Below, in pieces: positions 1 to 54,520 of a DNA stretch of 64,000 nt. The position numbers were made by a program, and so were the translations under genes. Position 1 is the stretch's first letter. The number at the start of each line of letters is the position of its first letter. The stretch covers positions 153,452,001-153,516,000 of the forward strand of contig CM059431.1 in the NCBI GenBank assembly GCA_030390025.1. Direction: 5' to 3'. Below the pieces are notes generated by a model, which was given only the letters and a program-made list of their open reading frames with translations, was not told the origin of the DNA and searched no databases. This DNA is from Squalus acanthias (taxonomy: Eukaryota).

Positions 1-590
1 CGGCTTACCACATATTGTGCAGATAGAGCTTAGGTTTACTTGTCCTTGGGGAGCAATGTGTGGTTGCTGGGTTTGGCTTACTGGACCAGTAAGCATTGCC
101 CCACCAGCATTTAGATATGATTGAGCTAGTGCCTGTCGACATTGATTATAATGGATTCTAAGCTGTCTATATTTTTCTTGAAGATTCTGCTCATTTATTT
201 CATCATGAACTTCCACTTCAACCGGAATCCATGTCCCCCGGGAGCTTAGGCAGCTCCTGGTCCTACTTTTCTGCCATGGTTGCCACCACCATGTTTGGCA
301 CCATTCATTAGCCCTCCCAATTGTGCATTTGTGCACGTTATCATTAAGGAATTCAGTGGATTTGGAATATCTGTTTCAATATCCTACTGGATATTCTGTA
401 TCAACTGATTCTGGGGATCAACATCAATCGTGCCATGAGTTCTAACTGCTCCATCGGCTTCACAGTCTCCTATTTCAAAAACTATCACTTGGTTTTGTGA
501 AGGTAAAGGAATAGAATTATTTCCCCTAATAATGCAATCGTTTGAATTTCCTAATAAAAAGTATTGGCCAATTACGACAGGGTTTGCCAT
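1..590 (-). pseudogene. gag: Decayed gag 5' region of an endogenous foamy (spuma)-like retrovirus; runs off the left edge of the window
   Basis: Minus-strand translation from ATG 590, through a TAG at 384-386 and a stop/frameshift near 240-250: ...IIRGNNSIPLPSQNQVIVFEI...DPQNQLIQNIQ*DIETDIPNPLNSLMITCTNAQL...EINEQNLQEKYRQLRIHYNQCRQALAQ...VNLSSICTICGKP. It is colinear with recalled prototype foamy virus Gag blocks ILRDRNIPRNPLHGEVIGLRL, DDDNEPLQRPRYEVIQRAVNPHTMFMISGPLAEL, the coiled coil, and IPIQHIRSVTGEPP. Confidence 0.7.
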
Positions 591-600
591 TTCTTAAGGA

Positions 601-741
601 CCTAATCTCGGTTAGGTTTTAACATGAAATGTATAAGAAATTTCTCGTCCTCAATGGTATATTGAGGGCGTTCTGATTTAAGTTGTACATGGCCTGATCA
701 GGGACTTGCTGTCTCTAGAGACTTAAGTCTGGGTCATATTA
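601..741 (-). promoter_or_regulatory. Putative retroviral leader (dimerisation/packaging region) upstream of gag, truncated by the Penelope-like element
   Basis: Perfect palindromes AGAAATTTCT (636-645), CCTGATCAGG (693-702), GTCTCTAGAGAC (711-722) and AGACTTAAGTCT (719-730), plus hairpin CCTCAAT-ggtat-ATTGAGG (649-667), directly 5' of the gag ATG. Confidence 0.45.
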
Positions 742-798
742 CCACAAAATTGAGAGGTCGCACAACACCAGGTTATAGTCCAACAGTTTTATTTGAAA

Positions 799-836
799 TC
801 ACAAGCTTTCGGAGCTATCGCTCCTTCCTCAGGTGA
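799..836 (-). ncRNA. Minimal type I hammerhead ribozyme in the inverted pLTR
   Basis: Minus strand: UCAC-CUGAGGA-A-GGAGC gaua GCUCC-GAAA-GCUU-GUGA; intact CUGANGA/GAAA core, stems I and II, palindromic AAGCUU in place of stem III. Confidence 0.8.
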
Positions 837-1447
837 AGTAAATTGGATACAGAATCGCCAGAGCATATATAGATGGAAAACAAAGCATGTGTACTTTACA
901 ATTGCAGACCAATAAATTAAATCATCCGGACTATCTGCCGAGGTGTGATAAAGTTAATTAAGTCAGCCAGGAAGGTACCACATCAAAAGACATAGCAAGA
1001 TACAACTGAGACAATGAGGTGTAGTCGCAGGGGTTCTAACGTGTCAAAAGCTGCCGTCTGTATGTAAAACGAAAAGCTTTAAAAAAAATTACTTTTTCAC
1101 CCGGGATCTTGGGTTTATGTCACGATACATGACGTGATCCGGACTCGAGTCGTCGTTGGCTTGTTCACAGATGTGATTCCCAGTAAAAAAGTAAAAATTT
1201 TAAAGTTAATCGTTTTACATACAGACGGCAGCTTTTGGCACGTTAGACCCCATGCGACTCCACCTCATTGTCTCAGTTGTATCTTGCTATGTCTTTGATG
1301 TGGTACCTTCCTGGCTGACCTGATTAACTTTATCACACCTCGGCAGATAAACAGTCAGGATGATTGAATTTATTTGTCTGCAATTGTAAGTTACACATGC
1401 ATTGTTCTCTATCTATATATGCTTTGACGATTCTGTATCTCCTCACT

Positions 1448-1485
1448 TCACCCGACGAAGGAGTTGTAACTCCGAAAGCTTGGGA
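1448..1485 (+). ncRNA. Hammerhead ribozyme motif in the 5' pLTR (core variant, probably impaired)
   Basis: UCAC-CCGACGA-A-GGAGUU gu AACUCC-GAAA-GCUU-GGGA; U4 to C change in the core and one stem I mismatch. Confidence 0.7.
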
Positions 1486-1572
1486 TTTAAAATAAAACTG
1501 TTGGACTATAACCTGGTGTTGTGCGACCTCTCAATTTTGTCCACCCCAGTCCAACACCGGCATCTCCGCATC

Positions 1573-4250
1573 ATGACCACTATCGACACCACAAACTGCC
1601 GGCTCAAAGTGGAGAGAATCGCCAAGAAGATCGCGCATATCGACACCGACATCAAGTATCTACAAAGATGCAAGAAAGCAGACAAGAGCCCGAAAGGACT
1701 ACAGATCACGAACCCACTCAAGTCGACATACAACAGAGACTACGCTGAGAGACTCTGTCGTCGTACCTCTCGCACACTCCTCAACAATCTCGTACACCAG
1801 CTCTACAGCAAAAGCCACAACCTCGAAACCAAGATAGAGTCCATGCTCTCAGCCTGTGCTCAGGACACAGCAGACCAGTTACGAGACACCGCCAAACAGA
1901 CGAGGCAACGGAACTACGCTGCCTACATGCGCATCAAAAACAGGAAGCTTGAGAAACTCGGCATCACCACCAGCAGCAACCAAGCCTCCCCCGGTACCAC
2001 GGCTGCAACCACAGGGAAGTCCATCGTCAATTTGTCCGACCATACCCTTCAACCAGACGAAATCGAAGTTCTCGCCCTAGGGCTCAAGTTCTGCCCAACC
2101 ACCAAAATGGACCCCATCGGTCTCGCGGCAGACACGGAGGAATTCATCAGGAGAATGAGGCTCCGGGAATACTTCCACAAATCCCAAGATGTCAGCAACA
2201 AACCCAATGAGACAATCAATGATCCAGAACAGCAGACAGAGGGACACGCAGTGCAGCAAACGAAGAAAAAAGAGTCAAACTGGACCCCTCCGGAGGGTCG
2301 CTGCCCCAAGCTGGACATGTATGCTCACGCTGTCAGGAGATGCATCAACGCCAGATTCATCAGCCGCACTCACAAGACAGTCCAGAATGTCACCCGAGCA
2401 CAACGCAACGCCATCCACGCTCTCAAGACCAAGCGCAACATTGTCATCAAACCAGCGGACAAAGGAGGAGCCATCGTCATACAGAACAGAATGAACTATT
2501 GTACAGAAGCATACCGACAACTGGACAACCAGGAACACTACAGACAGCTACCCGCAGATCAGACCAAAGAACACACCCGCCAACTCAATAGACTGATCAA
2601 GACCTTCGATCCAGACCTTCAAAACATCCTAGCGCTCTCATCCCACGTACTCCCCGCGTGGGAGACTTCTACTGCCTCCCAAAGATACACAAAGCCAACA
2701 CACCCGGACGTCCTATCGTATCAGGCAACGGAACCCTGTGTGAGAACCTCTCTGGATACGTCGAGGGCATTCTGAAACCCATCGTACAGGGAACCCCCAG
2801 CTTCTGTCGCGACACTACAGACTTCTTACAGAAACTCAGCACCCACGGACCAGTTGAACCAGGAACACTCCTCACCACGATGGACGTATCGGCACTCTAC
2901 ACCAGTATCCCCCACGATGACGGCATCGCTGCGACAGCCTCAGTACTCAACACCAACAACAGCCAATCTCCAGACGCCATCCTACAACTCATCCACTTCA
3001 TCCTTGACCACAATGTCTTCACCTTCGACAACCATTTTTTTACCCAAACACACGGAACAGGCATGGGGACCAAATTCGCACCCCAATACGCCAACATCTT
3101 CATGCACAAGTTCGAGCAAGACTTCTTCACTGCACAGGACCTCCAGCCAACGCTGTACACCAGATACATCGACGACATTTTCTTCCTTTGGACCCATGGC
3201 GAAGGATCACTGAAAAGACTACACGATAACATAAACAAGTTCTATCCCACCATCAAACTCACCATGGACTACTCCTCAGAATCAGTTTCATTCCTGGACA
3301 CACGAATCTCCATCAAAGACGGACACCTCAGCACTTCACTCTACCGCAAGCCCACGGACAACCTCACGATGCTCCACTTCTCCAGCTTCCACCCTAACCA
3401 CGTTGAAGAAGCCATCCCCTATGGACAAGCCCTGCGAATACACCGGATCTGCTCAGACGAGGAGGAACGCGATGGACACCTACGGACGCTGAAAAACGCC
3501 CTCGTAAGAACGGGATATGACGCTCGACTCATCGATCGACAGTTCCGACGGGCCACAGCGAAAAATCGCATAGACCTCCTCAGAAGGCAAACACGGGACA
3601 CAACCAACAGGGTACCCTACGTCGTCCAGTACTTCCTCGGAGCGGAGAAACTACGCCATGTTCTTCGCAGCCTTCAACATATCATCGATGACGACAAACA
3701 CCTCGCTAAGGCCATCCCCACGCCTCCACTACTTGCCTTCAAACAGCCGCCTAACCTCAGAAGTACCATTGTTCGCAGCAAATTACCAAGCTTTCAGGAT
3801 AACAGCGACCACGACACCACAGAACCCTGCATTGGCAAACTCTGCAAGACATGCCAGATCATCAACACAGATACCATCATCACACGTGAGGACACTACCC
3901 ACCAGGTATATGGTACATACTCATGTGACTCGGCCAACGTTGTCTACCTCATACGTTGCAGGAAATAATGCACCGCGGCATGGTACATCGGCGAGACCAT
4001 GCAGACACTGAGACAACGTATGAACGAGCACCGTGCAACAATCGCCAGGCAGGATTGTTACCTCCCAGTCGGGGAACACTTCAGCAGTCAAGGACATTCA
4101 GCCTCGGATCTGCGGGTAAGCGTTCTCCAAGGCGGCCTTAGGAAAACACGACAACGCAAAATCATCGAGCAGAAACTGATAGCCACGTTCCGCACTCATG
4201 AAGACGGTCTCAACCGGGATCTTGGGTTTATGTCACGATACATGACGTGA
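1573..4250 (+). pseudogene. PLE polyprotein (RT + Cys-rich linker + GIY-YIG endonuclease) with two frameshifts
   Basis: ORFs 1402-2775, 2658-3968 and 3999-4250 join. Motifs: IKPADKGGAIVI, PKIHK..PGRPIVS, MDVSALYTSIP, GTGMGTKFAP, RYIDDIF, PCxxxxCxxC, NVVYLIRC..WYIGET, RMNEH, GLN. Frameshifts near 2630 and 3965. Confidence 0.93.
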
Positions 4251-6080
4251 TCCGGACTCGAGTCGTCGTTGGCTTGTTCACAGATGTGATTCCCATGCGA
4301 CTCCACCTCATTGTCTAAGTTGTATCTTGCTATGTCTTTGATGTGTTACCTTCCTGGCTGACCTGATTAACTTTATCACACCTTGGCAGATAAACAGTCA
4401 GGATGATTGAATTTAGTTGTCTGCAATTGTAAGTTACACATGCATTGTTCTCCATCAGGGACACGTTTTAAAGAGTGTGTTTCAGCATGAGGGACGCCTT
4501 TGAAATAGAGAGCATCGCCATCAGGGGCCCCTTAAAAGAGGGAGTATCCCCGTCAGGTATCCCTATTAAAACGTGAGTCTTTCCATAAGGGACCCCTTCA
4601 AAGAATAAGTGTCAATATCAGGGAACCCGTATAATGAGGAAGTTTCACCATCAGTGACCCCTTTTAAAAAGTGAGTCACACGATCAGGAATCAATTTTAA
4701 AAAGAGAGCCTTTCTATCAGTGTCCCTTTTAAAGAGGTAGTCTCACCATCAGGGACCCCTTATAAAGAGAGAGTCGCAACATCAGAGATCCCTTTTAAAG
4801 AGTGAGTCTTTCTAACAGGTAGCCATTTTAAAGAGGGAGTCTCACCATCAGTGACTTTTTTTAAGAGGAAGTCTCAACATCAGGGACCTTTTAACGAGAG
4901 AGTCTCACAATCAGGGATCTCTCTTAAAGATAGTGTCTCACGCTCAGTGACCGTGTTAAAGAGGCAGCCCTTATATCAGGCAGCCTTTTTAAAGAATGAG
5001 TCTCACCATTTGGGTTCCCAGTAAAAGAGTGAGTCTCACCATCAGGGATACCTTTTAAAGAGGGAGTCTTTCTATCAGGGAACCTTTTAAAGAGGCAGAT
5101 TCACTATCAGGGAACCCTTTTAAAGAGGATGTTTCAGCATCAGGGACTCCTATTAGAGAGGAAGTCTCACCATCGGGGAACCCTTTTAAAGAGGAAGTCT
5201 CACTATCAGCGATCCCTTTTAAAGAGGACTTCTCCCCATCAGATACCACTTTTAAATAGATAGTCTCACCATCTGGGGCCCCTTTTAAAGAGGGGGTATC
5301 CCTGTCAGGAACCCCTTTTAATGAGAGAATCGCTCCACCAGGGACCTCTTTTATAAAGAGCGTCTAGCATTCAGGGATCACTTTTAAAGTGAGACTCTCA
5401 CCGTCAGAGACCCTTTTAAAGAGGGAGTCTTTCTATAAGGGAGCCCTTTTAAAGAGTGAGTCTCACCGTCTGTGAAAATTTTAAAGTGAGTCTTTCTATC
5501 AGGGAGCCCTTTTAAAGAGGGAGTCTCACTATCAGAGACCCTTTTAAAGAGGGAGTCTTTCTATCAGGCAGCACTTTTAAAGTAAGACTCTCAACCTCAG
5601 GGAAGCCTTTTAAAGAGGGAGCGTCACAATCAGTAACACCTTTTAAACAGGGAGTTTCACCATCAGGGACCACTTTCAAAGAGAGATAATTTCAGTTAGG
5701 GTCTCCTTTTAAAGTTGGAGTCTTACCCTCGGGGATCCATCTTAAAGAGAGTGTCTTACTATCAGGGACCCATTTTAAAGAGGGCGTCTCCCCATTAGCG
5801 ACACATTTTAAAGAGGCAGTCTCACCATCTGGGACTCCTATTGAAGAGGGAGTCTCACCTCCAGGGACCCCTTTAAAAGAGGAAGTCTCACAATCAGCGA
5901 CCGCTTTTAAAGAGAGAGTCTCCCCATCAGGGACCCCTTTTAAAGAGAGAGACTCGCCATCAGGTCCACTTTTAAAGAGGGAGTATCACCTTCAGGGACC
6001 CGTTTTAATGACAGGATCTCTCCACCAGGGACCCTTTTTAAAGAGGAATTATCTGCATCAGCGAACCATTGTAAAGGGGG

Positions 6081-7534
6081 TGTAAAGGATTGAGACATAT
6101 TTCCGAAAAATACACCACTCTATGAACAGAATTCTGATTTTATTAAAATAGGACAAACTGGGTTTAAAAATCTAAAAGCCTGAATGACACAAAGCTGTAA
6201 ATACAGGCTTCTGAGATAAGATGAGTAACAAACCTGGAAGCACCGTACAAGCTTATGAAATAGGAATTGGTTATTGACAATGAGACAATGGCCTCATTGA
6301 ATCAGAGGATTGTAGTTTCCAAGAAGTCTGCAGTTTGGAACCAATACAATAGCTATACCCAGTTTAACGTGTTATAAACTAACACTTCGAACAGAAACAC
6401 AGAACATTAAAAAAACATGTGTCTTTGTAAAAGAAACATCAAATGAAAGACAGGTAACATAAGTTTGTAATATAACCAATTAAGATGGCTGGTGAAACAA
6501 TCAAGTACTCGATTGAAGTGCTTTGATTTACATATTGTAAAAGGTAAAAACAGAAGACTTGGTAAATATTACATCAATAGATGCATCAAGTAATCACACG
6601 GTTTATGTGTTGAAAAAGGAACACAAGGAGATGCAAAGTCTGGAATTCAAGCAGTTAAAGTAATTTAAGAAATCAACAGGAGACCTTCGTAAGAATGGCA
6701 TTAAATTGATACAACTGACATAACCATTTTGTATGATAACTTTCGAACACCTAAAGATAGAGACAGAATTCTGCAAGTTAGCAGCTGAATTGACAGTAAG
6801 AATAGAAAGAAGTCAACAGAAAGATGACTGGAGATAATTAGCTTACATCAGAAGAAATGTTCAAAGAATATACCACTGCAAAAAAGGGCATAAAATATAG
6901 TGCTTTCAGATAGGAAGTTAGAAGTCGCTGGAAGCAGCAAAGTGATTCTCAACTTCAGAGGCAGTCTCTGTAACTTTTTATCTTTTTGAGTCTCTGGGAT
7001 CAAAATTAACTTTTATTTGAATTTGAAGGATATTCTGGATTATAAATATGTACGAATTTGGAAATGTAACGAAGTTAAGATTTGAGAATAAGGATCTCTG
7101 ATAAGAAATGTAAGTCATTTGATGTTTTAACTTTTAAAGTTGCGATTGAAAGCACCAACGGTTAAGTTTATGCCAGCTCTTTAATAAATCTAAATATTTT
7201 TAGAATTGTCTCACAGAGTACTTCTGTATCAATCTCGAGAACTCAATTTCTGAACGCTTTTTTGTGAGGAGTAGCAGAATTCTGTGGTGTTTTCCGGACC
7301 CTCATAATATCCAGATCTTTACAGTCTATTTAAACTTATTAAAAGTGCTATCTGGAGGACGGTAACGTCTTCAAGTCGGTCCTTTCCTTTAGGGAGAGAT
7401 AGTTTGAACCTGTAGACACAATTAAGCATCTCTCGGATTCGGCTATCTCTAACTGTAGTTGAAGGTGAACGTCTGGGCATTACGCCTTATCTGGGGTAGC
7501 CCGAAAAGTGCTACGACTGGTAATTATCGCTTCA
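6081..7534 (+). mobile_element. Solo LTR (1454 bp), foamy-like ERV candidate
   Basis: AT-rich insert in the satellite with TG...CA ends (TGTAAAGGAT...TTATCGCTTCA), TATA-like CATAAAA at 6889, donor-like GTAACT at 6970 and AATAAA at 7183. Homologous at both ends to 22660-28760 (minus). No perfect TSD (GGGG vs AGGG). Confidence 0.85.
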
Positions 7535-16007: not shown

Positions 16008-17890
16008 ATGATGTGGAGATGCCGGCGTTGGACTGGGGTGGACAAAAATGAGAAGTCGCACAACACCAGGTTATAGTCCAACAGATTTATTTAATTTTAC
16101 AAGCTTTCGAAGCAGTTCGCTCCTTCTTCAGGTAAGTTAGCAATGAGAGAATCTCCCAGAATTCACAATTTAAACCCAGACAAAATCTATTCACATTATT
16201 CCCTACAACAAAGAGCACAGCCAAGACAATGAGATGTGTCCCAGGAGGTCCAACGTGTCAAACCACCTGCTGGCTGCATATCCTGTCAATTTGTGTTCTT
16301 GTGTTAGTCTTTTAAAAAAAAAACACCTGGGAAGACCGGCCATGATGTCAAGTCACGTTCTGTATCGTGACATGAACCCGATATCGCGATTGAGGCCATC
16401 CTCATGAGTGCAGAACTTGGCTATCAGTTTCTGCTCTATGATTTTGCGCTGTCGTGTATCTCGAAGGCCGCCTTGGAGAACGCTTACCCACAGATCCAAG
16501 GCTGAATGCCCCTGGCTGCTGAAGTGTTCCCCGACTGGAATGCAACCCTCCTGCCTGGCGATTGTTGCGCGGTGTCCGTTCATACGTTGTCTCAGTGTCT
16601 GCATGGTCTCGCCGATGTACCATGCTCTGGAGCATCCGTTACTGCAACGTATCAGGTAGACAACGTTGGCCGAGTCACATGAGTATGTACCGTGTATCTG
16701 GTGGGTAGTGTCCTCACGTGTAATGATGGTATCTGTGTCCATGATTTGGCATGTCTTGCAGAGGTTGCCGTGGCAGGGTTGTGTGGTGTCTTGGTTGCTG
16801 TTCTCCTGAAAGATGGGTAATCTGCTGCGAACGATGGTACTTTTGAGGTTAGGCGGCTGATTGAAGGCGAGTAGTGGAGGCGTGGGGATGGCCTTAGCAA
16901 AGTTGTTCGTCGTCATCGATGATATGTTGAAGGCTGCGAAGAACATGGCGTAGTTATTCCGCTCCGGGGAAGTACTGGACGACGTAGGGTACTCTGTTGG
17001 TTGTGTCCCGTGTTCGTCTTCTGAGGAGGTCTATGCGGTTTTTCGCTGTGGCCCGTCGGAACTGTCGATCGACGAGTCGAGCGTCATATCCCGTTCTTAC
17101 GAGGGCATCTTTCAGTGTCCATAGGTGTCGATCGCGTTCCTCCTCGTCTGAGCAGATCCTGTGTATTCGCAGGGCTTGTCCATAGGGGATGGCTTCTTTA
17201 ACGTGGTTAGGGTGGAAGCTGGAGAAGTGGAGCATCGTGAGGTTGTCCGTGGGCTTGCGGTAGAGTGAAGTGCTGAGGCGTCCGTCTTTGATGGAGATTC
17301 GTGTGTCCAAGAATGAAACCGATTCTGAGGAGTAGTCCATGGTGAGTTTGATGGTGGGATGGAACCTGTTGATGCTATCGTGTAGTCCTTTCAGTGATCC
17401 TTCGCCGTGGGTCCAAAGGAAGAAGATGTCGTCGATGTGTCTGGTGCACAGCGTTGGTTGGAGGTCCTGTGCAGCGAAGAAGTCTTGCTCGAACTTGTGC
17501 ATGAAGATGTTGGCGTATTGGGGTGCGAATTTGGTCCCCATGGCTGTTCCTTGTGTTTGGGTGAAAAAATGGTTGTCGAAGGTGAAGACATTGTGGTCAA
17601 GGATGAAGCGGATGAGTTGTAGGATGGCGTCCGGAGATTGGCTGTTGTTGGTGTTGAGTACTGAGGCTGTCGCAGCGATGCCGTCATTGTGGGGGATATT
17701 GGTGTAGAGTGCCGATACGTCCATTGTGACGAGGAGTGTTCCTGGTTCAACTGGTCCATGGGTGCTGAGTTTCTGCAAGAAGTCTGTAGTGTCGCGACAG
17801 AAGCTGGGGGTTCCCTGTACGATGGGTTTCAGGATGCCCTCGACGTACCCAGAGAGGTTCTCACACAGGGTTCCGTTGCCTGATACGATA
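16008..17890 (-). mobile_element. 5'-truncated Penelope-like element (same family, different 3' UTR variant) with complete 3' pLTR
   Basis: ORFs 16954-17778 (RT) and 16353-16946 (linker + GIY-YIG) are closely similar to 2658-4250. Flanked on both sides by ACCATCAGGGAA (15997-16008 and 17890-17901), a possible TSD. Confidence 0.93.
16097..16135 (-). ncRNA. Minimal type I hammerhead ribozyme in the 3' pLTR
   Basis: Minus strand: UUAC-CUGAAGA-A-GGAGC gaacu GCUUC-GAAA-GCUU-GUAA; core intact, stem I covaries with the copy at 799-836. Confidence 0.8.
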
Positions 17891-20800
17891 CCATCAGGGA
17901 AGGCATTTAAAGATGAGAGTCTTTCTATCAGGGATCAGTTTTAAAGAAGGAATCTCACCATCAGGGATCCCTTTTAAATAGAAAGTCACCATATCAGGGA
18001 CCCCTTTTAAAGAGGGAGTCTCACCATCAGTGACCCCTTTTAAAGAGGGAGTCTCAACAACAGGTACCCCTTTTAAAGACGGAATCTCAGCATCAGGAAC
18101 CCCTTTTAAAGAGAGAGTATTTCTATCAGGGAGTCCTTTTAAAGAAGGAGTCTCACCATCAGAGACCCAATTTAAACAGACAGTCGCACCATCAGGGACC
18201 CCTTTTAAAGAGGGTCTATCCCCTTCAAGGACTCATTTTAATGATAGGGTATCTCCACCTGGTACCTCTTTTAATGAGGGAGACTCACTATCAGGGGCCC
18301 CTTTTAAAGAGGGAGTCTCACCTTCAGGGATCCATTTTAAAGAGGGAGACTTTCTCTCGGGGAGACCTTTTAAAGAGTGAGTCTCACCATCAGGGATCCC
18401 TTTAAAGATGTAGTCTTAGCATGTGGTATCCAGTTTAAAGATTGAGTCTCACCATCAGGGATCTCTTTTAAAGAGACAGATTCTCCCCATTAAGGGATCC
18501 CTTTCAAAGTGGGTGTCTCACCATCAAATACCCTTTTAAACAGGAAGTCTCACCATCAGGGTCTCCTATTAAAGAGTGAAATTCACCAACAGGGACACTT
18601 TTAAAGAGGAATCTTTCTATCAGGGATCCATTTTAAAGAGGCTGTCTCATCATTAGAACCCCTTTTAAAGGGGGTGTCTCACCAACAGGGACAGCTTTTA
18701 TAGAGGGTGTCTCACCATCCGGGAACATTTTAAAGAGGCAGTCTCCCCATGAGGGACCCCTTTTAAAGAGAGCGTTTCGCCATCAGGTTCCCTTTTTAAA
18801 GTGATAGTCTTTCTATCAGGGACCCCTTTTAAAGAGGGAGTCTCAGCATCAGGGAACCCATTTAAAGAGAGAATATCCCCATTAAAAGAAGAAGGCTCAC
18901 CATCTGGGATCACTTTTAAAGAGGGAGTCTTTTCAGCAGGGAGACGATTTAAAGCGGGAGTCTCACCACCACAGACCCAATTTAAAGAGAGAGTCGCACC
19001 ATCAGGGCGCCTTTTAAAGAGGGCGTATCACCTTCAGGTGCCCATTTTAATTAGAGAGTCTTTCCACCAGGGACCCGTTTTAAAGAGGGAGTGGCACCAT
19101 CACGGACCCCTTTTATAGAGGGAGTCTCCACAACAGGGACTCCTTTTAAAGAGAGAGTTTTGCCATCAGTGTCCCCTTTTAAAGAGGGAGTCTTTCTATC
19201 AGGGAGCACTTTTCATGTGATTCTTACCATCAGGGACCCCTTTTAAAGTGGGAGTGTCTCAATCAGGGTCACTTTTAAATAGGATGTCTCCCCATCAGGG
19301 ACCCCTTTTGAGGAGGGTGTCTAACCATCAGGAGCCCCTTTTATAGAGGGAGACTCACCGTCAGGGACCCCTTTTAAAGTGGAAGTCTCACCATCAGGGA
19401 CCCCTTTTAGAGAGAGAGTCTCACCATCAGGGTTCCCTTTTTAAGAGGGTTATTTCTATCAGGGAGCCCTTTTAAAGCAAATGTAACCATCAGGGATCCC
19501 TTTTAAAGAGCTTATCTTTCTATCAGGGAGCCCTTTTAAAGATGGAGTCTCACGATCAGAGATTCTTTTAAAGAGGAACCCTTTTAAAAACAGTCTTAAC
19601 ATCTTGGACCCCTTTTAATGATTGAGTCTCACCATCAGTATCCCTGATAAAGAGAGATTCTCACACTCTGGGACACATTTGAAAGAGGGTGTCTCCCCAT
19701 CAGGGACCGCTTTTAAAGAAGGAGTGTTTCCAGCAGGGAGACGATTTAAAGCGTGAGTCTCATCACCACAGACCCAATTTAAAGAGAGAGTCGCACCATC
19801 AGTTACCGCTTTTTAAAGAAAGAGAGTCTCCATCAGTGACACCTTTTAAAAAGGGTGTATCTTCATCAGGGACACCTTTTAAAGAGGGTGTCTCCCATCA
19901 GGATCCCTTTTGAATAGGGAGTCTCCCCAAAAGGGACACCTTTTAAAGAGGGAGACTCACCATCAGGGATCCCTTTTAAATAGAGAGTCTCAACAACAGG
20001 GACCCCTTTTAAAGAGGGAGTCTTTCTATCAGGGTCCCCTTTTAAAGATACTCTTACCATCCGGGAACAGTTTTAAAGAGTGAGTCTCATCATCAGGGAT
20101 CTCTTTTAAAGAAGAAGTCTCACCATCAGGGTAAACTTTTAAAGAGGGTATCTCACCTCCAGAGACCCAATTTAAAGAGAGAGTTGCACCATCAGGGACC
20201 CCTTTTTAAGATAGAGTATCCCCTTCACGGACCCATTTTAATGAGAGAGTCTCTCCACCAGGGAACTTTAACGTGGAAGTCTCACCATCAGGGACCTCTT
20301 TTAAAGAGGGAGTCTCACCCAAAGGGACCCCTTTTAAAGAGTGAGTCTCACCATCAGGGATTGTTTTAAAGAGGGAGGCTTTCTATCAGGGAGCTATTTT
20401 AAAGAGAGCCTTACCATCAGGGTTCCCTTTTATTGAAGGAGTCTTTCTATCAGGGAGCCCTTTTAAAGAGGATGTCTCACAATCAGAGACCCTTTTAAAG
20501 ATGGAGTATTTCTCTCAGGGAAACCTTTTAAAGAGAGTCTTACTATCAGGGACACTTTCTAAAGAGAGAGTCTCACCATCAGAGACCCTTTTAAAAAGGG
20601 AACCATCAGGGTCTCCTTTTAAAGAGTGAGTCTCACCATGATGGACCCTTTTAAAGAGGGTTTATTTCTTTGAAGGACGCTTTTAAAGTGAGAGTCTCCC
20701 ATGAGGTATCTCTTTTAAAGATGCTCACCATCAGGGAGCACTTTTCAAGAGGGAGTCCTTCAATCAGAGAGTCAGTTTAAAGAGGGAATTTCACCATCAG

Positions 20801-23566
20801 AGACATTTTAAAGAGGGTGTCTCACCATCAGGGAGCCCTTTTAAACGAGATTGTTTCCCCATTAGGGAACCCTATTAAAGAATGAGTCTTTCTATCAGAG
20901 ACCCTTTTAAAGAGGGATTCTTTCTCTCAGGGAGCCCTTTTAAAGAGAGTCTTACCATCAGGGACCCCTTTAAAGAGGGAGTCTCACACTCAGGGACCCC
21001 TTTAAATGAGGGTGTCTCGTAATCAGGGACCCATTTTAAAGAGGGAGTCTCAACATCAGGAACCCCTTTTAAAAAGAGAGAATCTAACCTTGAGGGATCC
21101 TTTTCAAATAGGGAGTCTCACCATCAGAGATCCTTTCAGAGAGTGAGACTCACCATCAGGGACCCCTTGTAAAGAGGGATTCTTTCTATCAGGGAGTGCT
21201 TTTAAATTGGGAGTCTCAACATCAGAGACACTTTTAAAGAGGGAGTCTCACCATCAGGGACTCCTTATATAGAGGGAGCCTCAGCATCAGGGTCCCCTTT
21301 TAAAGATGTTGTCTCATCATCAGAGACCCAATTTAAAGACACAGTCGCACCATCAGGGACCCCTTTTAAAGTGGGTCTATCCCTTTCATGGACACATTTT
21401 AATGAGAAAGTATCTCAACCAGGGACACCTTTTAAAGAGGGTGTCTCACCATCAGGGACTATATTTAAAGAGCGAGTCTCACCATCAGGGATCACTTTTA
21501 CAGATGGAGTCTCATCATCAGGGCTCCATTTAAAGAGGGAGCCTTTCTCTCAGGGAGCCCTTTTAAAGAGGGAGTTTCAGCATGAGGGATCCCCTTTTTA
21601 AGAGTGAGTCATAGCATCTGGGTCCCTTTTAAAGATTGAGTCTCACCATCAGGGATCACTTTTAAAGAGTTGAGTCTTTCTATCCGGGAGTCCTTTTAAA
21701 GAGGGAGTCTCACCATCAGAGACTCCTTTTAAAGAGAGAGAATCTCCCCATTAGGGATCAATTTCAAAGAGGGAGTCTCACCGGCAGAGACACTTTTAAA
21801 GAGGCTGTGTCATCATCAGGGTCTCCTTTTAAAGAGTGAGACTCACCATCAGGGACCCCTTGTAAGGAGGGAGTCTTTATATCAGGGACCCCTTTTAAAG
21901 AGGGAGTCTCAGCATCAGGGACCCTTTTAAGGGGGAGTCTTTCTCTCAGAGAGCCCTTTGAAAGATGGATTATTTCTATCAGGGAGCTACATTAAAGTGA
22001 GCCTTACCATCAGGGATCCCTTTTAAAGAGGGAGTCTCACAATCAGAGACCCTTTTAAAGAGGGAGTCTTTCTCTCAGTGAGGCATTTTAAAGAGGGAGT
22101 CTCACCATCAGGGCCCACTTTTAAAGAGAGAGAATCTCCCCATTAGGGATCCCTTTCAAAGAGGGAGTCTCACCGGCAGAGACCCTTTTCAAGAGAGTGA
22201 GTCATCATCGGGGTCTCCTTTTAAAGAGTGAGACTCACCATCAGGGACCCCTTGTAAAGCGGGAGTCTTTCTATCAGGGACCCCTTTTAAAGAGGGAGTC
22301 TCAAAATCAGGGACCCCTTTTAAAGAGAGAATATCCCCATTAGGGATCCCTTTTAAAAACAATGTCGCAGCATCTTTGACACAATTTAAAGTGGGTGGAT
22401 GCCCCTCAGGGACTCATTATAACTTTACAGTCTCTCCACCAGCGACCCTTTTTATAGAGGGAGTCTCACCATCAGGGAGCCCTTTTAAAGTGTGAGTCTC
22501 ACCATCAGGAATCCCTTTTGACGATGGAGTTTCACCATATAAGGTTCCATTTTAAAGCGTGAGTCTTAGCAGCTGGGATCCCTTTTAAAGAGGGAGTCTC
22601 ATCATCAGAGATCCTTTTAAAGACGGAGTCTATCTCTCAGGGAGCCCTTTTAAAGATAATGAAGTGATAATTACAAGTCCCAGCCCTTTTGGACTACCGC
22701 AGATCAGGCGTATTCCCCAGACGTTTACCTTCAACTAAAGTTTGCGGTAGCCGGTTCCTATAGACGCTTAATTGGGTCTAAAGGTCAGGCTACCTTTTCC
22801 TAAAGGAAAGAAACGGTCTAAAGTTGTAACCGTCCTCCAGATAGTACTTTTAAAATGTTTAACTAGACTGAAACCTTCCGGATATTATGAGGGTCCGGAA
22901 TACCCCTCAGAATTCTACCAGTCCTTTGATTGCACAGAAATTGAGTTCGCAAGATGATACAGTATTGTTCTTTGAGACAATTTTAACAATATATAGATTT
23001 ATTGACGAAACGACATTTAGATTACATATATTATGGCAATCACAACTTTAATCGTTCAAAATACAAATAGCTTACATTTCTTATCAGAGATCCTTATTCT
23101 CAAAACTTAACTTCGTTACATTTCCACATTTCTACTTATTTCTTAATCCAGAATATCCACCAAAATCAAATACCTTGATTACCCGAGTCTCAAATGTTGT
23201 AAACTTACAGAGAATGTCTGTGAAGTTGAGAAACGCTTTTCGTCCCAGTGATTTCTGAATTTTCTGTTTGAAAAGATCTATTTTTATATCTATTTTGGGT
23301 GGTTTATCCTTTGCAGTTTTCCTGATGATGTAAGCTTTATTGTATAAAGTTATGTCTTTGCTGACTTTGTTCTATTCTTTATTGATATCTCTGTTGAATG
23401 CTTTCTGTCTGCACTCTCAATTTAGATATTGCATGCATAATTATGTCTGTAGCATAGAGGTTTCAAAAACCGTCATATAACCAAGAACAGCAATGGTTTC
23501 TGTTTGACACAATTCTTATCAAAGTCTTTCTACTGATTTTATAATACTACTTTAACTGGTTATTAT

Positions 23567-23879
23567 CACAGAGGCGGCGGACCTGGGTGGAGCGGCTGCG
23601 GCGAGGCGGAGGACTTAAGAGGCGGCGGCGACCAGGTCGGCCCACAGAGGCGGCGGACCTGGGTGGAGCGGCTGCGGCGAGGCGGAGGACTTAAGAGGCG
23701 GCGGCGACCAGGTAGGCCCACAGAGGCGGCGGACCTGGGTGGAGCGGCTGCGGCGAGGCGGAGGACTTATGAGGCGGCGGCGACCAGGTAGGCCCACAGA
23801 GGCGGCGGACCTGGGTGGAGCGGCTGCGGCGAGGCGGAGGACTTAAGAGGCGGCGGAGACCAGGTAGGCCCACAGAGGC
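23567..23879 (+). repeat. 76-bp GC-rich tandem monomers (4 full + partial) at the CR1 5' end
   Basis: CACAGAGGC starts at 23567, 23643, 23719, 23795 and 23871; units nearly identical. Confidence 0.95.
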
Positions 23880-24075
23880 TTTTAAAGTGCGGGACGCAGT
23901 GGTTGCTGGGTAGGTGATTAATTTTTACCTGTATATAAGTTGGGCGGTTCCTAAACCCGAGACACTACACTTGTAGTGTCCCCCACCCTTCCTCCTCCTC
24001 TAACCTAAAGGAGGTGAGTGACTATCAGGTAAGCTCTTTTTTGTTCTAGTTTAATCTGCAAGTTAGCTGGAGAGG

Positions 24076-25002
24076 ATGGCAGGGGAGGCAGTGAAATGTT
24101 CCTCCTGCAGAATGTTTGAGGTGAGAGACGCCGTAGGTGTCCCTGCTGATTACACCTGTGGGAAGTGCACCCATCTCCAGCTTCTCGAAAACCGTGTTAG
24201 GGAACTGGAGCTGGAGCTGGATGAACTTCGGATCATTCGGGAGGCAGAGGAGGTCATAGATAGAAGCTTCAGGGATGTAATTACTCCAAAGCATGTAGAT
24301 AGATGGGTGACGGTGAGAGGGGCTAGGAGGAAGCAGTCAGTGCAGGGATCCTCTGTGGTCGTTCCCCTCAGTAACAGGTATACCGCTTTGAATACTGTTG
24401 AGGGGGACGACTTACCAGTGGTAAGCCACGGTGAGCGGATCTCCGGCGCTGGGTCGGTCCCTGTGGCTCAGAAGGGAAGGGGGGAGAGCAGGAGAGCAAT
24501 AGTTATTGGGGACTCAATAGTCAGAGGGACAGATAGGAGGTTCTGTGGCAGCAAAAGAGACTCACGGATGGTATGTTGCCTCCCGGGTGCCAGGGTCCGT
24601 GACGTCTCGGACCGTGTTTTCAGAATCCTCAAAGGGGAAGGGGAACAATCACAAGTCGTGGTACACATCGGTACCAACGACATAGGTAGGAGAAGGGACG
24701 GGGATTTAAAACAGGAATTTAGGGAGCTAGGTTGGAAGCTGAGAGCCAGTACAAACCATGTTGTAATTTCTGGTTTTTTGCCGGTGCCACGTGCTAGCGA
24801 GTTGAGGAACAGGGAGAGAGTGCAGATAAACACGTGGCTGCAGGGATGGTGTAGGGGGGAGGGTTTCAGTTATGTGGATAATTGGAGCACATTCTGGGGA
24901 AGGTGGGACCTGTACAAACAGGACGGTTTGCACCTGAACCAGAGGGGCACCAATATCCTGGGAGGGAAATTTGCTACGGCTCTTCGGGGGGGTTTAAACT
25001 AA
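24076..25002 (+). CDS. CR1 ORF1p: zinc finger/leucine zipper + SGNH esterase domain (intact, 308 aa)
   Basis: CSSCRM..CGKC, LELELDEL coiled coil, IGDSIVR, CLPGARV, HIGTND, DGLHLN. Confidence 0.93.
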   Translation: MAGEAVKCSSCRMFEVRDAVGVPADYTCGKCTHLQLLENRVRELELELDELRIIREAEEVIDRSFRDVITPKHVDRWVTVRGARRKQSVQGSSVVVPLSNRYTALNTVEGDDLPVVSHGERISGAGSVPVAQKGRGESRRAIVIGDSIVRGTDRRFCGSKRDSRMVCCLPGARVRDVSDRVFRILKGEGEQSQVVVHIGTNDIGRRRDGDLKQEFRELGWKLRASTNHVVISGFLPVPRASELRNRERVQINTWLQGWCRGEGFSYVDNWSTFWGRWDLYKQDGLHLNQRGTNILGGKFATALRGGLN

Positions 25003-27894
25003 TTTTTCAGGGGGATGGGAAAAAGGGCTGTAGTCCACGAGCCAGTGGTGAGTGTAGGGAGGTACTGAGGAGGGTATCAAGGTCGCAGGAATGTACCGGC
25101 AGACAGGAAGATGGCTTGAAGTGTGTCTACTTCAATGCAAGGAGCATCCGGAAAAAGGTAGGAGAACTTGGAGCGTGGATTGGTACTTGGGACTATGATG
25201 TGGTGGCCATTACGGAGACATGGTTAGAACAGGGACAGGAATGGTTGTTGGAAGTTCCGGGGTATAGATGTTTCAGTAAGAGTAGGGAAGTTGGTAAGAA
25301 AGGTGGAGGAGGAGCATTGTTAATCAAGGGTATTTTAACAGCGGCAGAAAGGCAGTTCGAGGGGGATCTGCCGTCTGAGGTAATATGGGCTGAAGTTAGA
25401 AATAGGAAAGGAGCGGTCACGTTGTTAGGAGTTTTCTACAGGCCCCCAAATAGTAGATGTGGAGGAAGAAATTGCAAAGCAGATTATGAATAGGTGTGGA
25501 GGTCACAGAGTAGTTGTCATGGGTGACTTCAACTTTCCAAATATTGATTGGAACCTTTATAGGTCAAACAGTTCGGATGGGATAGTTTTTGCACAGTGTG
25601 TGCAGGAGGGTTTCCTGACACAATATGTGGATAGGCCGACAAGAGGTGGGGCCACGTTGGATTTGGTACTGGGTAATGAACCGGGCCAAGTGTTTGATTT
25701 GTATGTGGGAGAGCACTTTGGAGATAGTGACCACAATTCGGTAACTTTCACTATTGCAATGGAGAGGCATAGGGCCATACGGCAGGGCAGGGTTTATAAT
25801 TGGGGGAGTGGTAATTATGATGCGATTAGGCAAGAATTAGGGAGTATAAGATGGGAACAGAAACTATGAGGGAAAGGCACAAACGAAAAGTGGAGCTTTT
25901 TCATGGTGCAATTACTGCGTGTCCTTGATAGGTATGTCCCTGTCAGGCAGGGAGGAAATGGCCGAGTGAGAGAACCATGGTTCACAAAAGAGGTTGAATG
26001 TCTAGTCAAGAGGAAAAAGGAAGCGTATGTAAGGATGAGAAAATAAGGTTCAGTTGGGTCGATTGAGGGGTACAAGGTAGCAAGGAATGAGCTAAAAAAA
26101 GAGCTTAGGAGAGCTAGGAGGGGGCATGAGAAGTCCTTGGCGGGTCGGATCAAGAAAAACCCCAAGGCTTTTTACTCTTATGTGAGAAATAAAAGAATGA
26201 CCAGGGTGAGGGTAGGGCCGGTCAAGGACAGTAGTGGGAACTTGTGCATGGAGTCAGAAGAGATAGGAGAGGTGATGAATATATACTTTTCGTCAGTGTT
26301 CACCGAGGAGAGGGGCCATGTTCTTGAGGATGAGAGTGTGATAAAGGTGGATAGGCTGGAGGTTGTAGATGTTCTGAGGGAAGATGTTTTAGCAATTTTG
26401 AAGAACCTGAGGGTCGATAAGTCCCCTGGGCCAGATGGGATATATCCTAGGATTCTTTGGGAGGCAAGGGAGGAGATTGCAGAGCATCTGGCTTTGATCT
26501 TTGGGTCCTCACTGTCCACGGGGATGGTGCCAGAGCACTGGAGAGTGGCGACTGTTGTTCCTCTCTTCAAGAAAGGAAATAGGAATGACCCTGGTAATTA
26601 TAGGCCGGTTAGTCTTACTTCGGTGGTCGGTAAGATAATGGAAAAGGTCCTGAGGGATAGGATTTATGACCATTTGGAAAGGGGCAACGTAATCAGGGAT
26701 AGTCAACACGGATTCGTGAAGGGTAAGTCTTGCCTAACAAATTTGATTGAATTCTTTGAGGAGGTAACTAAGTGTGTAGATAAAGGTAGAGCAGTTGATG
26801 TCGTATACATGGATTTTAGTAAGGCGTTTGATAAGGTTCCCCATGGTCGTCTCATGAAGAAAGTAAGGAGTTGTGGGATAGAGGGAAATTTGGCCGATTG
26901 GATAAGTAACTGGCTATCTCATAGAAGGCAGAGGGTGGTGGTGGATGGAACATTTTCGGACTGGAGACCAGTTACCAGCGGTGTGCCACAGGGGTCGGTG
27001 CTGGGTCCTCTGCTGTTTGTGATTTTTATCAATGACTTGGAGGAGGGGACTGAAGGGTGGATCAGTAACTTTGCTGATGACACCAAGATTGGTGGAGTAG
27101 TGGATGAGGTGGAGGGCAGTTGTAGGCTGCAAAGAGACATTGATAGGATGCAGAGCTGGGCCGAAAAATGGCAGATGGAATTTAACCCTGATAAGTGCGA
27201 GGTGATTCATTTTGGTAGGGCAAATTTGAATAAGGATTACAGGGTCAACGGCAGGGTTCTGAGGAACGTGGAGGAGCAGAGGGATCTGGGGGTTCATATC
27301 CACAGATCTCTGAAGGTTGCCACTCAAGTGGATAGAGCAGTAAAGAAGGCCTATGGTGTGTTGGCGTTTATTAACAGAGGGTTTGAGTTTAAGAACCGTG
27401 AGGTTATGCTGCAACTGTACAGGACCTTGGTGAGACCACATTTGGAATATTGTGTGCAGTTCTGGTCACCTCACTATAGGAAGGACGTGGAAGCATTGGA
27501 AAGAGTGCAAAGGAGATTTACCAGGATGCTGCCTGGTTTGGGGGGGAGGTCTTATGAGGAAAGATTGAGGGAGTTGGGGCTTTTCTCTTTAGAGCGGAGG
27601 AGGATGAGAGGCGACTTAATAGAGGTTTATAAGATGATGAGGGGGATAGATAGAGTGGATGTTCAGAGACTATTTCCTCTGGTAGAGGCAGCTGTTACAA
27701 GGGGGCATAACTATAAGGTGCATGGGGTGAGATATAGAAGGGATGTCCGAGGTAGATTCATTACTCAGAGAGTGGTTGGGGTGTGGAATGGACTGCCTGC
27801 TGTGATAGTGGAGTCGGACACTTTAGGAACTTTCAAGCGGTTATTGGATAAGCACATGGAGCACACCAGAGTGATAGGGAGTGTGATAGCTTGA
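25003..27894 (+). pseudogene. CR1 ORF2p (APE endonuclease + RT) with one frameshift and two nonsense codons
   Basis: [61 protein letters not shown]. Frameshift near 25455; in-frame stops at 25867-25869 and about 26044. Confidence 0.93.
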
Positions 27895-30800
27895 TCTTGG
27901 TCTCGGACAATGCTCGGCACAACATCGAGGGCCGAAGGGCCTGTACTGTGCTGGACTGTTCTATGTTCTATGTTCTATCAGGCGTTGCGACTCCGTGGCA
28001 TTCCATGTTCAATACAAGATCAATGTGATTGCTTGGTGTATCCATTGAAGTAATATTTTCAAAGTCGTCATGTTTGTGTACCTTTTACAACTTGTAAATT
28101 AAAATCTTTTTATCTGGGGTGTTCCATACATTTCTTATTTACGTCAATTGTTTTTTATCAGACAATGTGACTCCATCCTCAAGCTTAGCATTTAAACTAT
28201 TTGTTCAGCAGGCGTTTATTTTACTTGATGTCATTTCTTCAAAGCCTTCTGTATGTATTATATTTACAATATGTAAATTGAAAACACTTTAACTCAGTGT
28301 TTACTTGTTTTCTCGCGATGTGAATTGGTTGCACATTTAATCGTGTTTCCTGTTTCTAAGTTTATCATAAAACTATTTTACGACAGGTATTTCTTAATTG
28401 ATGTCATTTTTTTCAAATGCACTTGTTTTTTTTAATGTCCTCTGCACCTGTTCGACGTGTTAGATTATAAAACTTTACTTGGGTCATTCCATTGTTTTTC
28501 TCCCAAACTCAAGACATAGAGGAACCTCCCAATAGTTTGCTTCATTAGGGCATTGCCTTTGTCTCTATCCCATTCCCATATCAAACTTTGTGTTTACAGC
28601 TTTGTGTTAACAAACCATCTTATCTCATAAGCCTGTATTCTGTTTGCAGCCTGTGTCTGCCAAGGCTTATGATTTTAAACCCAGTACGTCATGTATTAAT
28701 ACTTTCAGAAATCTCTTTTTATTATCGTATATTATTCTGAATCCTGGCTATTCCTTCACAAGAGTCTTACCATCAGGGACCTCTTTTAAAGAGTGAGAAT
28801 CACCATCAGGGATTCCTTGTAAAGAGTGAGTCATTCTGTCAGGGTGTGCTTTAAAGAGGGAGACTCACCTTCAGAGACACTTTTAAAGAGCGAGTCTAAC
28901 CATCAGGGACCTCTTATTTAGAGGGAGCTTCAGAATCAGGGACCCCTTTTAAACGAGAGAGTCTCCCCATTAGGGAACCCTATTAAAGAGGGAGTCTCAC
29001 CTTTAGGGACCCATATTAAAGAGGTTGTCTCACCATTAGGGACTGCTTTTAAAGAGGGAGGCTCACCATCAGGGAACCCTTTTAAAGAGGGAGTCTTTCT
29101 TTCAGCGACCCCTTTTAAAGGTGATGTCTCACTTCAGGGATACCATTTAAAGAGGGAGTCTCACCATCAGGGGCCCCTATTAAAGAGAGAGTCTTTCTAT
29201 CAGGGACCACTTTTATAGAGGGCGTCTCTCTCTCAGGGACTCCTATAAAAGAGAGAGTCTCCACATCAGGGAACTTTTTTAAAAAGTCAGTCTCCCCATC
29301 AGGGAACCCTTTTAATGAGAGAGTTTCGCCATCAGGGTCCCCTTTTAAATAGGGAGTCTTTCTGTCGGGGATCCCTTTTACATAGCGAGTCTCAGCATCA
29401 GGGACCCCTTTTAAAGTGAGAATATGTCCATTATGGATCCCTTTTAAAGAAGAAGTCTCACCATCAGGGATCAATTTTAAAGAGGGAGTCTTTCCAGCAG
29501 GGAGTCCTTTTAAAGATGGAGAATTTCTATCAGGGAGCTATTTTACAGAGAGCCTTACCATCAGGGTTCCCTTTTAAAGAGGGATTCTTTCTATCAAGGA
29601 GCCCTTTTAAAGAGTGAGGCTCACCATCAGGGATCACTTGTAAAGAGAGAGTCTTTCTATCAGGGTGTCCTTTAAAGAGGGAGTCTCACCATCAGAGACA
29701 CTTTTAAAGAGGGAGTTTCACCATTAGGGAACCCTATTAAATAGGGAGTCTCACCATCAGGGACTCATTTTAAAGATGGAATCTATCTCTCAGAGAGCTC
29801 TTTTAAAGAATATCTTACCATCAGCGATCCCTTTTAAAGAGGGAGTCTTTCAATCAGGAACACCTTTTATAGATAGTCTTACCATCAGGGACCCCTTTTA
29901 AAGAGGGAGTCTCACACTCGGGGACACCTTTTAAAGAGGGAGTCTCACAATCAGGGTCCCCTTTTAACGAGTGAATCTCACCATCAGAGATCCTTTTAAA
30001 GAGGGATTCCTTCTTTCAAGGACGCCTTTTAAAGTGAGAGTCTCCCATTAGGTACCTCTTTTAAAGAGGCTCACCATCAGGGAACACTTTAAAATTGAGA
30101 ATCTCACCGTCAGAGAAGCTTTTAAAGAGGGAGTCTTTGTAGCAGGGAGACATGTTAAAGGGAGACTCTCAAACCAAGGGCCACCTTTTAAAGCGGGAGT
30201 CTCATAATCAGGGACACCTTTTAAAAAGAGAATCTCACAATCAGAGATACTTTTAAAGAGGGAGTCTTTCTTACAAGGATCCCTTTTAAAGTGAGGGTCT
30301 CCCCATTAGGGACCCCTTTTAAAGAGGCTCACCATCAGGGATCACATTTAAAAAGGGTGGTTAAGCATCAGAGTCCACTTTGAAAGAAGGAGACTCACCG
30401 CCAGAGAACCTTTTAAAGAGGGATGATTTCTATCAGAGGCACCTTTTAAAGAGGTTGTCTCCACATTAGGGACCCATTTTAAAAATGGAGTCTTTCTATT
30501 AGGGACCCCTTTTAAAGTGGGCGTCTTTCTATCATGGATCCAATTGAGAGAGAGTCTCCATATTAGGACACCTTTTAAAGAGGCAGCCTCACCATCAGGG
30601 ACACGTTTTAAAGAGGGTGTTTCAGCATCAGGGACTCGTATTAAAGAGGGAGTCTCACCATTTGGGATCCCTTTTAAAGAAGAAGTCTCACCATCAGAGA
30701 TCCCTTTTAAAGATGGAGTCTCATCATCGGGGTCACCTTTTAAACGAGAGAGTCTCCCCATTTGTGATCCCTTTTAATGAGAATGTCTCACCATCATTGT

Positions 30801-50160: not shown

Positions 50161-50700
50161 TTCACCAGTTTATCTGTGTCCTCCTGAAGCCTGCTACTAT
50201 CCCAATCAGTGTTAACTACATTTCCTAGTTTTGTGTCATCTGCAAACGTTCAAATTATGCCGTTTATATATATATATAAATATATAATACAATATGTTTA
50301 ATATTTATCTAAATGATTATTGGTCCGAATAGCGACACCTGGGGGACAACACTGCATACATCACTCCAGTCTGAACAACAACCAGTCACCACTGCTCTCT
50401 GTTTTTGCTAACATCAGAGCCACACTGCCACTGCCCCTTTGTTCCTAACAAGTTTATTCAAAGAGACTTTATCAAATGCATTTTTAAAGTAATGTAATTA
50501 CGTCAACCACATTACGCCCATCAACCATCTCCGTTATTTCATCAAATAAATCAAACAAGATTGTCAGACAAACTTTATCGCTAACATATCCGTGCTTGTT
50601 GCCATTTATTAATCCATGTTTCTTTCCAAGTGACAGATAATATTCCCCGGGTATATGGCCTCTGGAAGTTTCCCACCCGCCTACGTTAGCCTGACTGGCC
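50161..50700 (-). mobile_element. Old CR1 ORF2 remnant (continues at about 54521-54620)
   Basis: KHGYVSDKVCLTILFDLFDEITEMVDGRNVVDV resembles CR1 RT QHGF..KSCLTNLIEFFEEVT; interrupted by the younger CR1. Confidence 0.75.
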
Positions 50701-53700: not shown

Positions 53701-54520
53701 GACAAGTGCGAAGTTATCCACCTTGGGTGCAGGAACGGGAGGGCAAATTATTATTTAAATGGCAATAAATTGGGAGAGGGGGAAGTACAGAGAGACCTGG
53801 GTGTTCTTGTACACCAGTCACTGAAGGCGAGCATGCAGGTGCAACAGGCGATCAAGAAGGCAAATGGTATGCTGGCCTTCATAGCAAAAGGGTTGGAATA
53901 CAGGAACAGGGATACCTTGCTGCAGCTGTACAGGGCACTGGTGAGACCACACCTCGAGTACTGTGTACAGTTTTGGTCGCCTCATCTGAGGAAAGATGTT
54001 CTTGCCATGGAGGGGGTGCAGCGGCGATTCACCAGGCTGATACCAGGAATGGCGGGATTGACCTATGAGGAGAGACTATGTAGTTTAGGGATGTACACAC
54101 TGGAGTTTAGAAGATTGAGAGGGGACCTCATAGAAGTGTATAAAATTCTGACAGGTCTAGACAGACTAGATGCAGAAGGAATGTTTCCCTTGGCGGGTGA
54201 GAACAGAACTAGAGGACATAATTTAAGGATAAGGGCTAAACCATTTAGGACAGAAATGAGGGGGAATTTCTTCACTCAGAGGGTGGTGAACCTGTGGAAC
54301 TCATTGCCACAGAGGGCAGTGTACGCCAGCTCATGAAATATATTTAAGAGGGAATTAGATATATTTCTACAGGCAAAAGGGGTTAAGGGTTACGGAGAGA
54401 AGGCGGGGACGGGATACTGAATTGGAGGATCAGCCATGATCTCATTAAATGGCGGAGCAGGCTCGAAGGGCCGGATGGCCTACTCCTGCTCCTATCTTCT
54501 ATGTATCTATGTATCTATGT
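50701..54520 (+). mobile_element. Near-full-length CR1 LINE, 5'-truncated inside ORF1
   Basis: ORF1 remainder to 51479 (GDSIVR, HVGTND, DGLHL). ORF2 from about 51480 to 54420 with APE + RT, a frameshift near 53575 and a stop at 54334-54336. 3' UTR and (TATGTATC)n tail. Confidence 0.94.

Follow-up and report, generated by a model that had tools for sequence, protein, structure and literature searches.

Positions 1-745 (minus strand) of the window, by which we mean the whole 64,000 nt stretch of Squalus acanthias DNA under analysis, carry the leader and the damaged first 195 or so gag codons of an endogenous foamy virus, in a copy that is dead. The family to which this copy belongs is almost certainly foamy viral in origin, and it very probably multiplied, reaching hundreds of copies, after losing its env gene; the two statements taken jointly are held with good confidence.

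When compared with the sequences in the PDB, the family Pol scores 423 bits against the foamy Pr125Pol, relative to 93 bits for MLV and 86 bits for Ty3, and it is 34-37% identical to the Pols of six simian foamy viruses (SFVs). In an 11-row Pol tree the family joins the six SFVs with an SH-aLRT value of 99; this is a quick tree, containing no fish, coelacanth or amphibian foamy sequences and accompanied by long-branch warnings, the careful search being unfinished. The Pfam profile Gag_FV_central matches sister copies at 49 bits (cut-off 30) and the window's own capsid at 38.9 bits, and Spuma_A9PTase (PF03539) matches sisters at 32-33 bits (cut-off 21) and the window's copy at 22.4 bits; sister copies also have matches to RVT_1 (reverse transcriptase, RT), the tether RNase H, RNase H and an integrase with SH3_11. 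In one of the sisters, residues 187-337 can be aligned to the PFV Gag central domain (5M1H) with an E value of 2.6e-4, and this alignment opens at the very motif that had been picked out from the letters of the window as the start of the capsid. The idea of an endogenous foamy gag is therefore borne out by the capsid, protease and Env of sister copies, all of which pass the spumavirus Pfam cut-offs; the pol, rather than grouping with Ty3/Gypsy elements or orthoretroviruses, the outcome that the earlier note had named as refuting, is foamy, as is the capsid.

The proteins most closely related to the family Gag come from Pleurodeles waltl, which has two of them, and from squirrel monkey SFV, where the match is its Gag. 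A search of representative proteins returned four matches, three of them foamy Gags and the fourth a repeat protein, which was dropped; other homologue searches with Gag gave no matches, and none were found among viral contigs. In the one copy read for these features, the protein has no Cys-His box, there being no CCHC, and its C-terminal part is rich in glycine and arginine, which make up 19% of residues 351-525 without forming clear GR boxes.

The window copy and the Gag N terminus

Read on the minus strand, the gag frame of the window begins with an ATG at 590 and contains all four peptides quoted in the earlier note, in the order given there (Table 1). Of the lesions proposed at the same time, the TAG at 384-386 stands, and its placing at an aromatic position agrees with the other copies, in which the most frequent residue at codon 69 is aromatic and a stop is found in 3 of 59. 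The frame is shifted by the loss of a single base at codon 127 rather than by an event near 245, and the TAG at 246-248 (codon 115, a stop in 1 of 59 copies) had been missed, this second stop and the frameshift having been fused into one event.

Table 1. Features of the provirus in the window and its immediate surroundings
Feature	Position	Strand	Remarks
Foamy-type gag, 5' part	1..590	-	pseudogene, covering roughly the first 197 codons
Foamy capsid (Gag central) domain, start	1..36	-	
Long helix by prediction (codons 135-161), which may be a coiled-coil stalk	109..189	-	low-confidence models
Gag N-terminal head region	200..590	-	beta-rich prediction, low confidence (pLDDT 39 and 46)
One-base deletion, gag codon 127, frame change	208..214, approximate (about 210-212)	-	
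Second premature stop TAG, gag codon 115	246..248	-	
Premature stop TAG, gag codon 69	384..386	-	in-frame
Untranslated leader, 3' part	591..745	-	sister-copy homology stops at 745
Penelope-like retroelement, not viral	746..4350, right end approximate	+	RT and GIY-YIG-like frames, repeated ends
Remainder of the window provirus	leftward of window: L011, G000:C7:153447159-153452000		capsid, gag end, pol, env remnant

A DNA search with this stretch found 446 candidate copies, of which 40 were scored, at 88-95% identity; a search with the Gag protein found 533 candidates, and among the 150 scored the frame was open over the window portion in many. Hence the window gag is a coding relic rather than a chance resemblance. 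The copy forms a long branch in the family tree, and all three of its breaks are also present in four other loci (L002, L003, L004 and L009), indicating that it was duplicated, already dead, together with its surroundings. Leftward of the window the provirus continues through the rest of gag, the protease, RT, a pair of RNase H domains and the integrase, and is then interrupted by a LINE; the env and accessory reading frames expected on this side are missing from this copy, which has the junction of the env deletion common to the family. On the other side the Penelope-like element, which was assigned to that family by reading its open reading frames (ORFs) and has its repeated end in inverted orientation, truncates the provirus. 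As it adjoins the leader directly, the primer binding site (PBS) and 5' LTR are absent.

Elsewhere in the window, between 4452 and 49843, a 33-bp satellite with diverged units forms extended arrays into which many elements have inserted. A second Penelope-like element, again with RT and GIY-YIG-like frames, lies at 16353-17934 (-), and two CR1/L2-like LINEs, named from their ORFs, lie at 24067-27894 and 50634-54336 (+), with endonuclease-RT frames and an ORF1 that looks esterase-like; directly before a LINE ORF1 there is a tandem repeat of 76 bp, rich in GC (23567-23879, 4.1 copies, 98%). LTR pieces at 6073-7534, 22660-23379 and 28035-28760 are, together with locus L012, 69-83% like the family LTR, resemble the LTRs of env-less copies more than those of env-bearing ones, and represent older or separate insertions; considered as the window copy's own LTR, the window pieces were rejected as separate insertions. 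One foamy copy, L023, has itself received a Gypsy-like element at 3529-7371 (+) with a 1281-codon open frame. Words of the family also occur in sequencing runs under five organism labels from four studies, and four of these runs show cover along the foamy stretch, hence close relatives of the family may exist in other species.

That residues 1-130 of Gag share their ancestry with the N-terminal domain of spumavirus Gag, as the earlier note held, we regard as about evenly balanced. The Gag_spuma_N profile has no match in the family Gag, and a genome profile search gave no matches in the controls either; this profile also misses the newt foamy Gag, suggesting that it is narrow. The local score of the region against squirrel monkey SFV was equalled by 323 of 1000 shuffles and that of the best ungapped 35-mer by 18 of 200, the two sequences having a W-x7-NPL-x7-T register in common, and hhalign gave 0.1%. 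For this region, PDB sequence searches and BLASTP gave no support, the ESM Atlas had no usable match, and the CTRS pattern GXWGX3RX7L(Q/V)D, as it appears in an excerpt of PMC3705263, is unmatched by the family Gag on reading by eye. Two AlphaFold models (pLDDT 39 and 46) have a beta-rich head and a helix at residues 135-161, and in four fold searches with these models no foamy chain was listed, the best Z score, 5.3, being to unrelated beta-barrels. The claim of a spumavirus-type domain (PF03276, the PFV Gag-NtD fold) thus found no support in sequence or in fold, with models too poor to exclude it; the heptad-rich helix proposed beside it corresponds to residues that are predicted to be helical, support being limited to these two low-confidence models.

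The missing profile match, the shuffle-level scores, the hhalign value, the unmatched CTRS pattern and beta-rich models resembling no foamy chain would all suit a lineage-specific substitute for matrix in which the motif resemblance is due to chance, a reading that we place a shade below an even chance. Set against it are the position of the region before the capsid, the long helix next to it, the ungapped register as in SFV, the narrowness of the profile and the poor quality of the models. The capsid starts near residue 186, compared with about 300 in PFV, 239 in squirrel monkey SFV and 182 in Pleurodeles waltl; the long linker is absent, as had been noted, although the Pleurodeles Gag shows that this trait is not unique to the family.

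The gag-pol junction

In this family gag and pol lie in one frame, and codon 526 is the sole codon of 1-944 to be a stop in more than 15% of copies; 48 copies cover it, and 35 of these read TGA. Of the others, 11 have a sense codon one base away, one is gapped and one misaligned through a duplication, while in the variability analysis 12 of 47 copies have sense at this position; the sense copies are scattered over the tree, and the codon ranks 57 of 945 in variability. A gag-pol frame fused and opened after env loss, read from two copies, was rejected on the frequency of the TGA. Only two env-bearing copies cover the junction, one of them heavily decayed but with the TGA, the other having a sense codon and an open frame; hence the shared frame probably predates the loss of env.

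The protease follows in the frame of gag, and ahead of its motif the pol frame has no conserved ATG. From codon 526 to codon 560 no ATG is present in more than 7% of copies, reading from ATGs in the +1 frame terminates around 30 codons later, and no separate pol frame with its own AUG was found; nor was a pyrimidine-rich acceptor seen near the junction by eye. A hairpin of 9 bp (-14 to -15 kcal/mol) begins at the first base after the TGA, leaving no spacer, and ranks 3-12 of 990 windows for stability in seven of seven copies, the window having been chosen after the hairpin was seen; the wider 131-nt fold at the junction is unremarkable (z = -0.97). The base after the UGA is A, the leaky stop context being a C in this position. 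Among the 15 joints listed, with 30 more present, for three presumed-RNA sequencing runs and a fourth run without a label, none of GT-AG type leads into pol, and the long joints of the presumed-RNA runs also occur in the unlabelled run.

On the sequence evidence, we give an even chance to Pol having been made as a Gag-Pol fusion through occasional readthrough of the gag UGA, in which case there would be no separate spliced pol mRNA with its own AUG. Somewhat less probable, though plausible, is that Pol was made in the foamy manner, apart from Gag, either from a spliced mRNA with an AUG in an upstream exon or from a non-AUG start, the shared frame being incidental. Splicing is the route of all studied foamy viruses, the living ones producing Pol from a spliced mRNA (PMC7828637, in excerpt); the many copies of RT-less genomes described below would fit Pol being packaged via RNA in trans, and the stop context is not classically leaky. 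However, this alternative has to contend with the absence of a pol-frame ATG before the protease motif, with the early termination of the +1 ATGs and with the lack of a visible acceptor, and Gag-Pol virions can also mobilise in trans. Pol made independently of Gag is the textbook mark separating foamy viruses from other retroviruses; a deep-branching gag-stop-pol lineage without a Pol AUG would provide a short natural cassette and bear on whether that mark is ancestral or derived.

Loss of env and spread of the family

The Foamy_virus_ENV profile has 11 matches in six loci, ruling out that env was never present, and the DNA of the env TM stretch is found in seven loci; both locus counts are lower bounds. 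The env-bearing loci are 85-94% identical to the env-less copies in gag-pol, and hence belong to the same family. Their Env, which is missing from the window's copy, has a long leader peptide, a membrane anchor and a furin site. A two-step deletion has removed around 3 kb of env, keeping the first 93 or so codons and a 35-base island; splicing was ruled out as its origin, the junctions having short microhomologies and, by eye, no GT donor. Within a set of 60 copies, 37 reach the start of env, 30 of which have the common two-step deletion, five continue into env and two are interrupted. Counted only among the 40 copies chosen by hand along the gag ranking with env disregarded, the deletion is present in 23 of 25 scorable ones, and all 40 scored matches to an env junction probe (432 candidates) span it. 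As the deletion is common to the window copy and most of its sisters, with about seven loci retaining env, the family very probably spread after env was lost.

In the tree the copies with env stand apart on a branch of their own (FastTree 1.000), the env-less copies being arranged as a star plus a ladder, and the env-bearing loci have a different U3, 76-77% identical in parts. RT is mostly missing from 14 of 40 copies through common nested deletions; the ladder consists of such RT-deleted copies, for which Pol would be needed in trans. Amongst the non-CpG variants of the protease-RT (PR-RT) region in 30 env-less copies, those shared by three or more copies (N10:S18) are more often synonymous than singletons (N228:S96; p = 5e-4), a purifying signal that is weak in gag 1-350 (p = 0.09) and absent both from gag 351-525 (p = 0.78) and from the ladder lineage (p = 0.26). 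Recombination with infectious helpers could be an alternative source of the common PR-RT variants.

The family LTRs are about 1.05-1.3 kb long and run from TG to CA, with 4-bp target duplications around all four copies in which both outer ends are visible. A Lys-type PBS 8-mer, which we take to be that of tRNA-Lys, is present in 20 of 40 copies, and the border of the polypurine tract (PPT) is GGG/TG in most printed copies and GGGA/TG in one. LTR pairs were called by script in 23 of 40 copies; the five used, four with matching target duplications plus L013, have diverged by 1.9-4.5%, which corresponds to roughly 19-45 million years at 0.5e-9, the rate assumed for a catshark in PMC10699275 (in excerpt), an age that is strongly rate-dependent. 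Only about 540 nt separate the end of env from the PPT, with short, inconsistent frames in five decayed copies.

Three env-bearing loci (L045, L072 and L087) have one protease-RT deletion in common, at L014 positions 2112-4396, which is complementary to the env-less type. In env-less copies such as L013, L015, L021 and L063, the env deletion has left a frame of about 110 codons corresponding to the cytoplasmic part of the Env leader, without a membrane anchor and with an early stop in several copies.

The history of the family began with the entry into the germ line of a foamy virus with the structure LTR-gag-pol-env, a few loci of which retain env. One env-deleted derivative gave rise to most copies, that in the window included, and RT-deleted derivatives of this env-less form also multiplied; the window copy later acquired its stops, the Penelope and LINE interruptions and its duplication, breaks included. 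Assembly of foamy capsids takes place in the cytoplasm and their exit depends on Env, so loss of env would trap them, and an env-less master could then have behaved as a retrotransposon in the germ line, copied within the cell by its own Pol, which it would also have provided in trans for the copies lacking RT. Retrotransposition is open to primate foamy virus, which requires Env for budding (PMC3705263, in excerpt). Such autonomous intracellular spread of the env-less form we consider fairly probable. A more doubtful possibility is that an env-bearing helper packaged the defective env-less genome as a passenger and spread it via reinfection of germ cells: env-bearing members exist, the three loci lacking protease-RT sequence are a possible complementing partner, and the selection signal in gag is weak. 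However, the env-bearing loci are few, their U3 is different, and the common PR-RT variants of the env-less copies are skewed towards synonymous changes. A broader scenario, which we regard as unlikely in its entirety, would have a basal, fully foamy virus using UGA readthrough, with the spliced pol mRNA and RNA-tethered packaging of Pol arising later, and its env-deleted form turning into an autonomous retrotransposon through which partners without RT were mobilised until their copies numbered hundreds.

Comparison with known retroviruses

It is very improbable that the family is a Ty3/Gypsy retrotransposon or an orthoretrovirus with chance foamy motifs since, although most copies are env-less and an in-frame gag-stop-pol is the gamma- and epsilonretroviral layout (PMC8278194, in excerpt), the Pol, capsid, protease and Env all match foamy viruses, the nearest RT is not that of a Ty3/Gypsy element, there are two RNase H domains rather than a single one, and no Cys-His box is present. 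The likeness to PFV and SFV (PDB 7O24, 5M1H and 8OZK) extends over the capsid, the A9 protease and a Pol of about 35% identity, an Env with long leader, anchor and furin site, the lack of any Cys-His box, and the long LTR, 4-bp target duplication and Lys-type PBS. Unlike these viruses, the family reads pol in the frame of gag without an AUG for Pol, has a short Gag linker, no match to the CTRS pattern and no consistent ORF in the short interval between env and the PPT, and consists mostly of env-less copies.

That a shark-type genome contains a foamy endogenous retrovirus (ERV) is no novelty in itself. Class III ERVs of fish genomes, as described in excerpts on CmiFLERV (PMC5512871), the teleost FLERVs (PMC5210030) and ERV-Spuma.0-Sca (PMC10699275), offer a close parallel: the fish and shark FLERVs have the Lys PBS, the GGGTG border and the 4-bp target duplication, and the gag and pol of ERV-Spuma.0-Sca are likewise both annotated in frame 3 (PMC10699275). 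The excerpts report only pol for CmiFLERV (PMC5512871) and no foamy Gag or Env homology for the teleost FLERVs (PMC5210030), whereas the Gag and Env of the present family both pass Pfam cut-offs. ERV-Spuma.0-Sca is set apart by its description, with an LTR of 866 and a gag of 2259 nt without a Gag domain match, and short motifs of the family are found in none of the entries listed from its supplement (PMC10699275, in part). The frog element XtERV-S, also of class III, has its gag and pol in frame across a TGA, with suppression proposed; it has a class I env and serine-type and ERV-L affinities, and is not a foamy virus (PMC8278194, in excerpt).

Endogenous foamy viruses are described as rare in excerpts of PMC10581153 and PMC3386198. 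In the literature compared, from which Wang, Chen and Cui 2023 stands apart, neither a foamy in-frame gag-stop-pol nor a foamy env-less burst was found, and as foamy features these two may be undescribed. Wang, Chen and Cui (J Virol, 2023) reportedly describe endogenous foamy viruses of cartilaginous fish, in sharks and rays, that are basal to other foamy viruses; the present family may well be one of these, and may already be covered there. Env-less ERV superspreaders, in which env loss is followed by a burst in copy number, are said to have been described by Magiorkinis et al. in 2012. The family resembles them in both respects, and appears to be an example among foamy viruses, which are regarded as rare entrants into germ lines, of copies multiplying en masse once env was gone.
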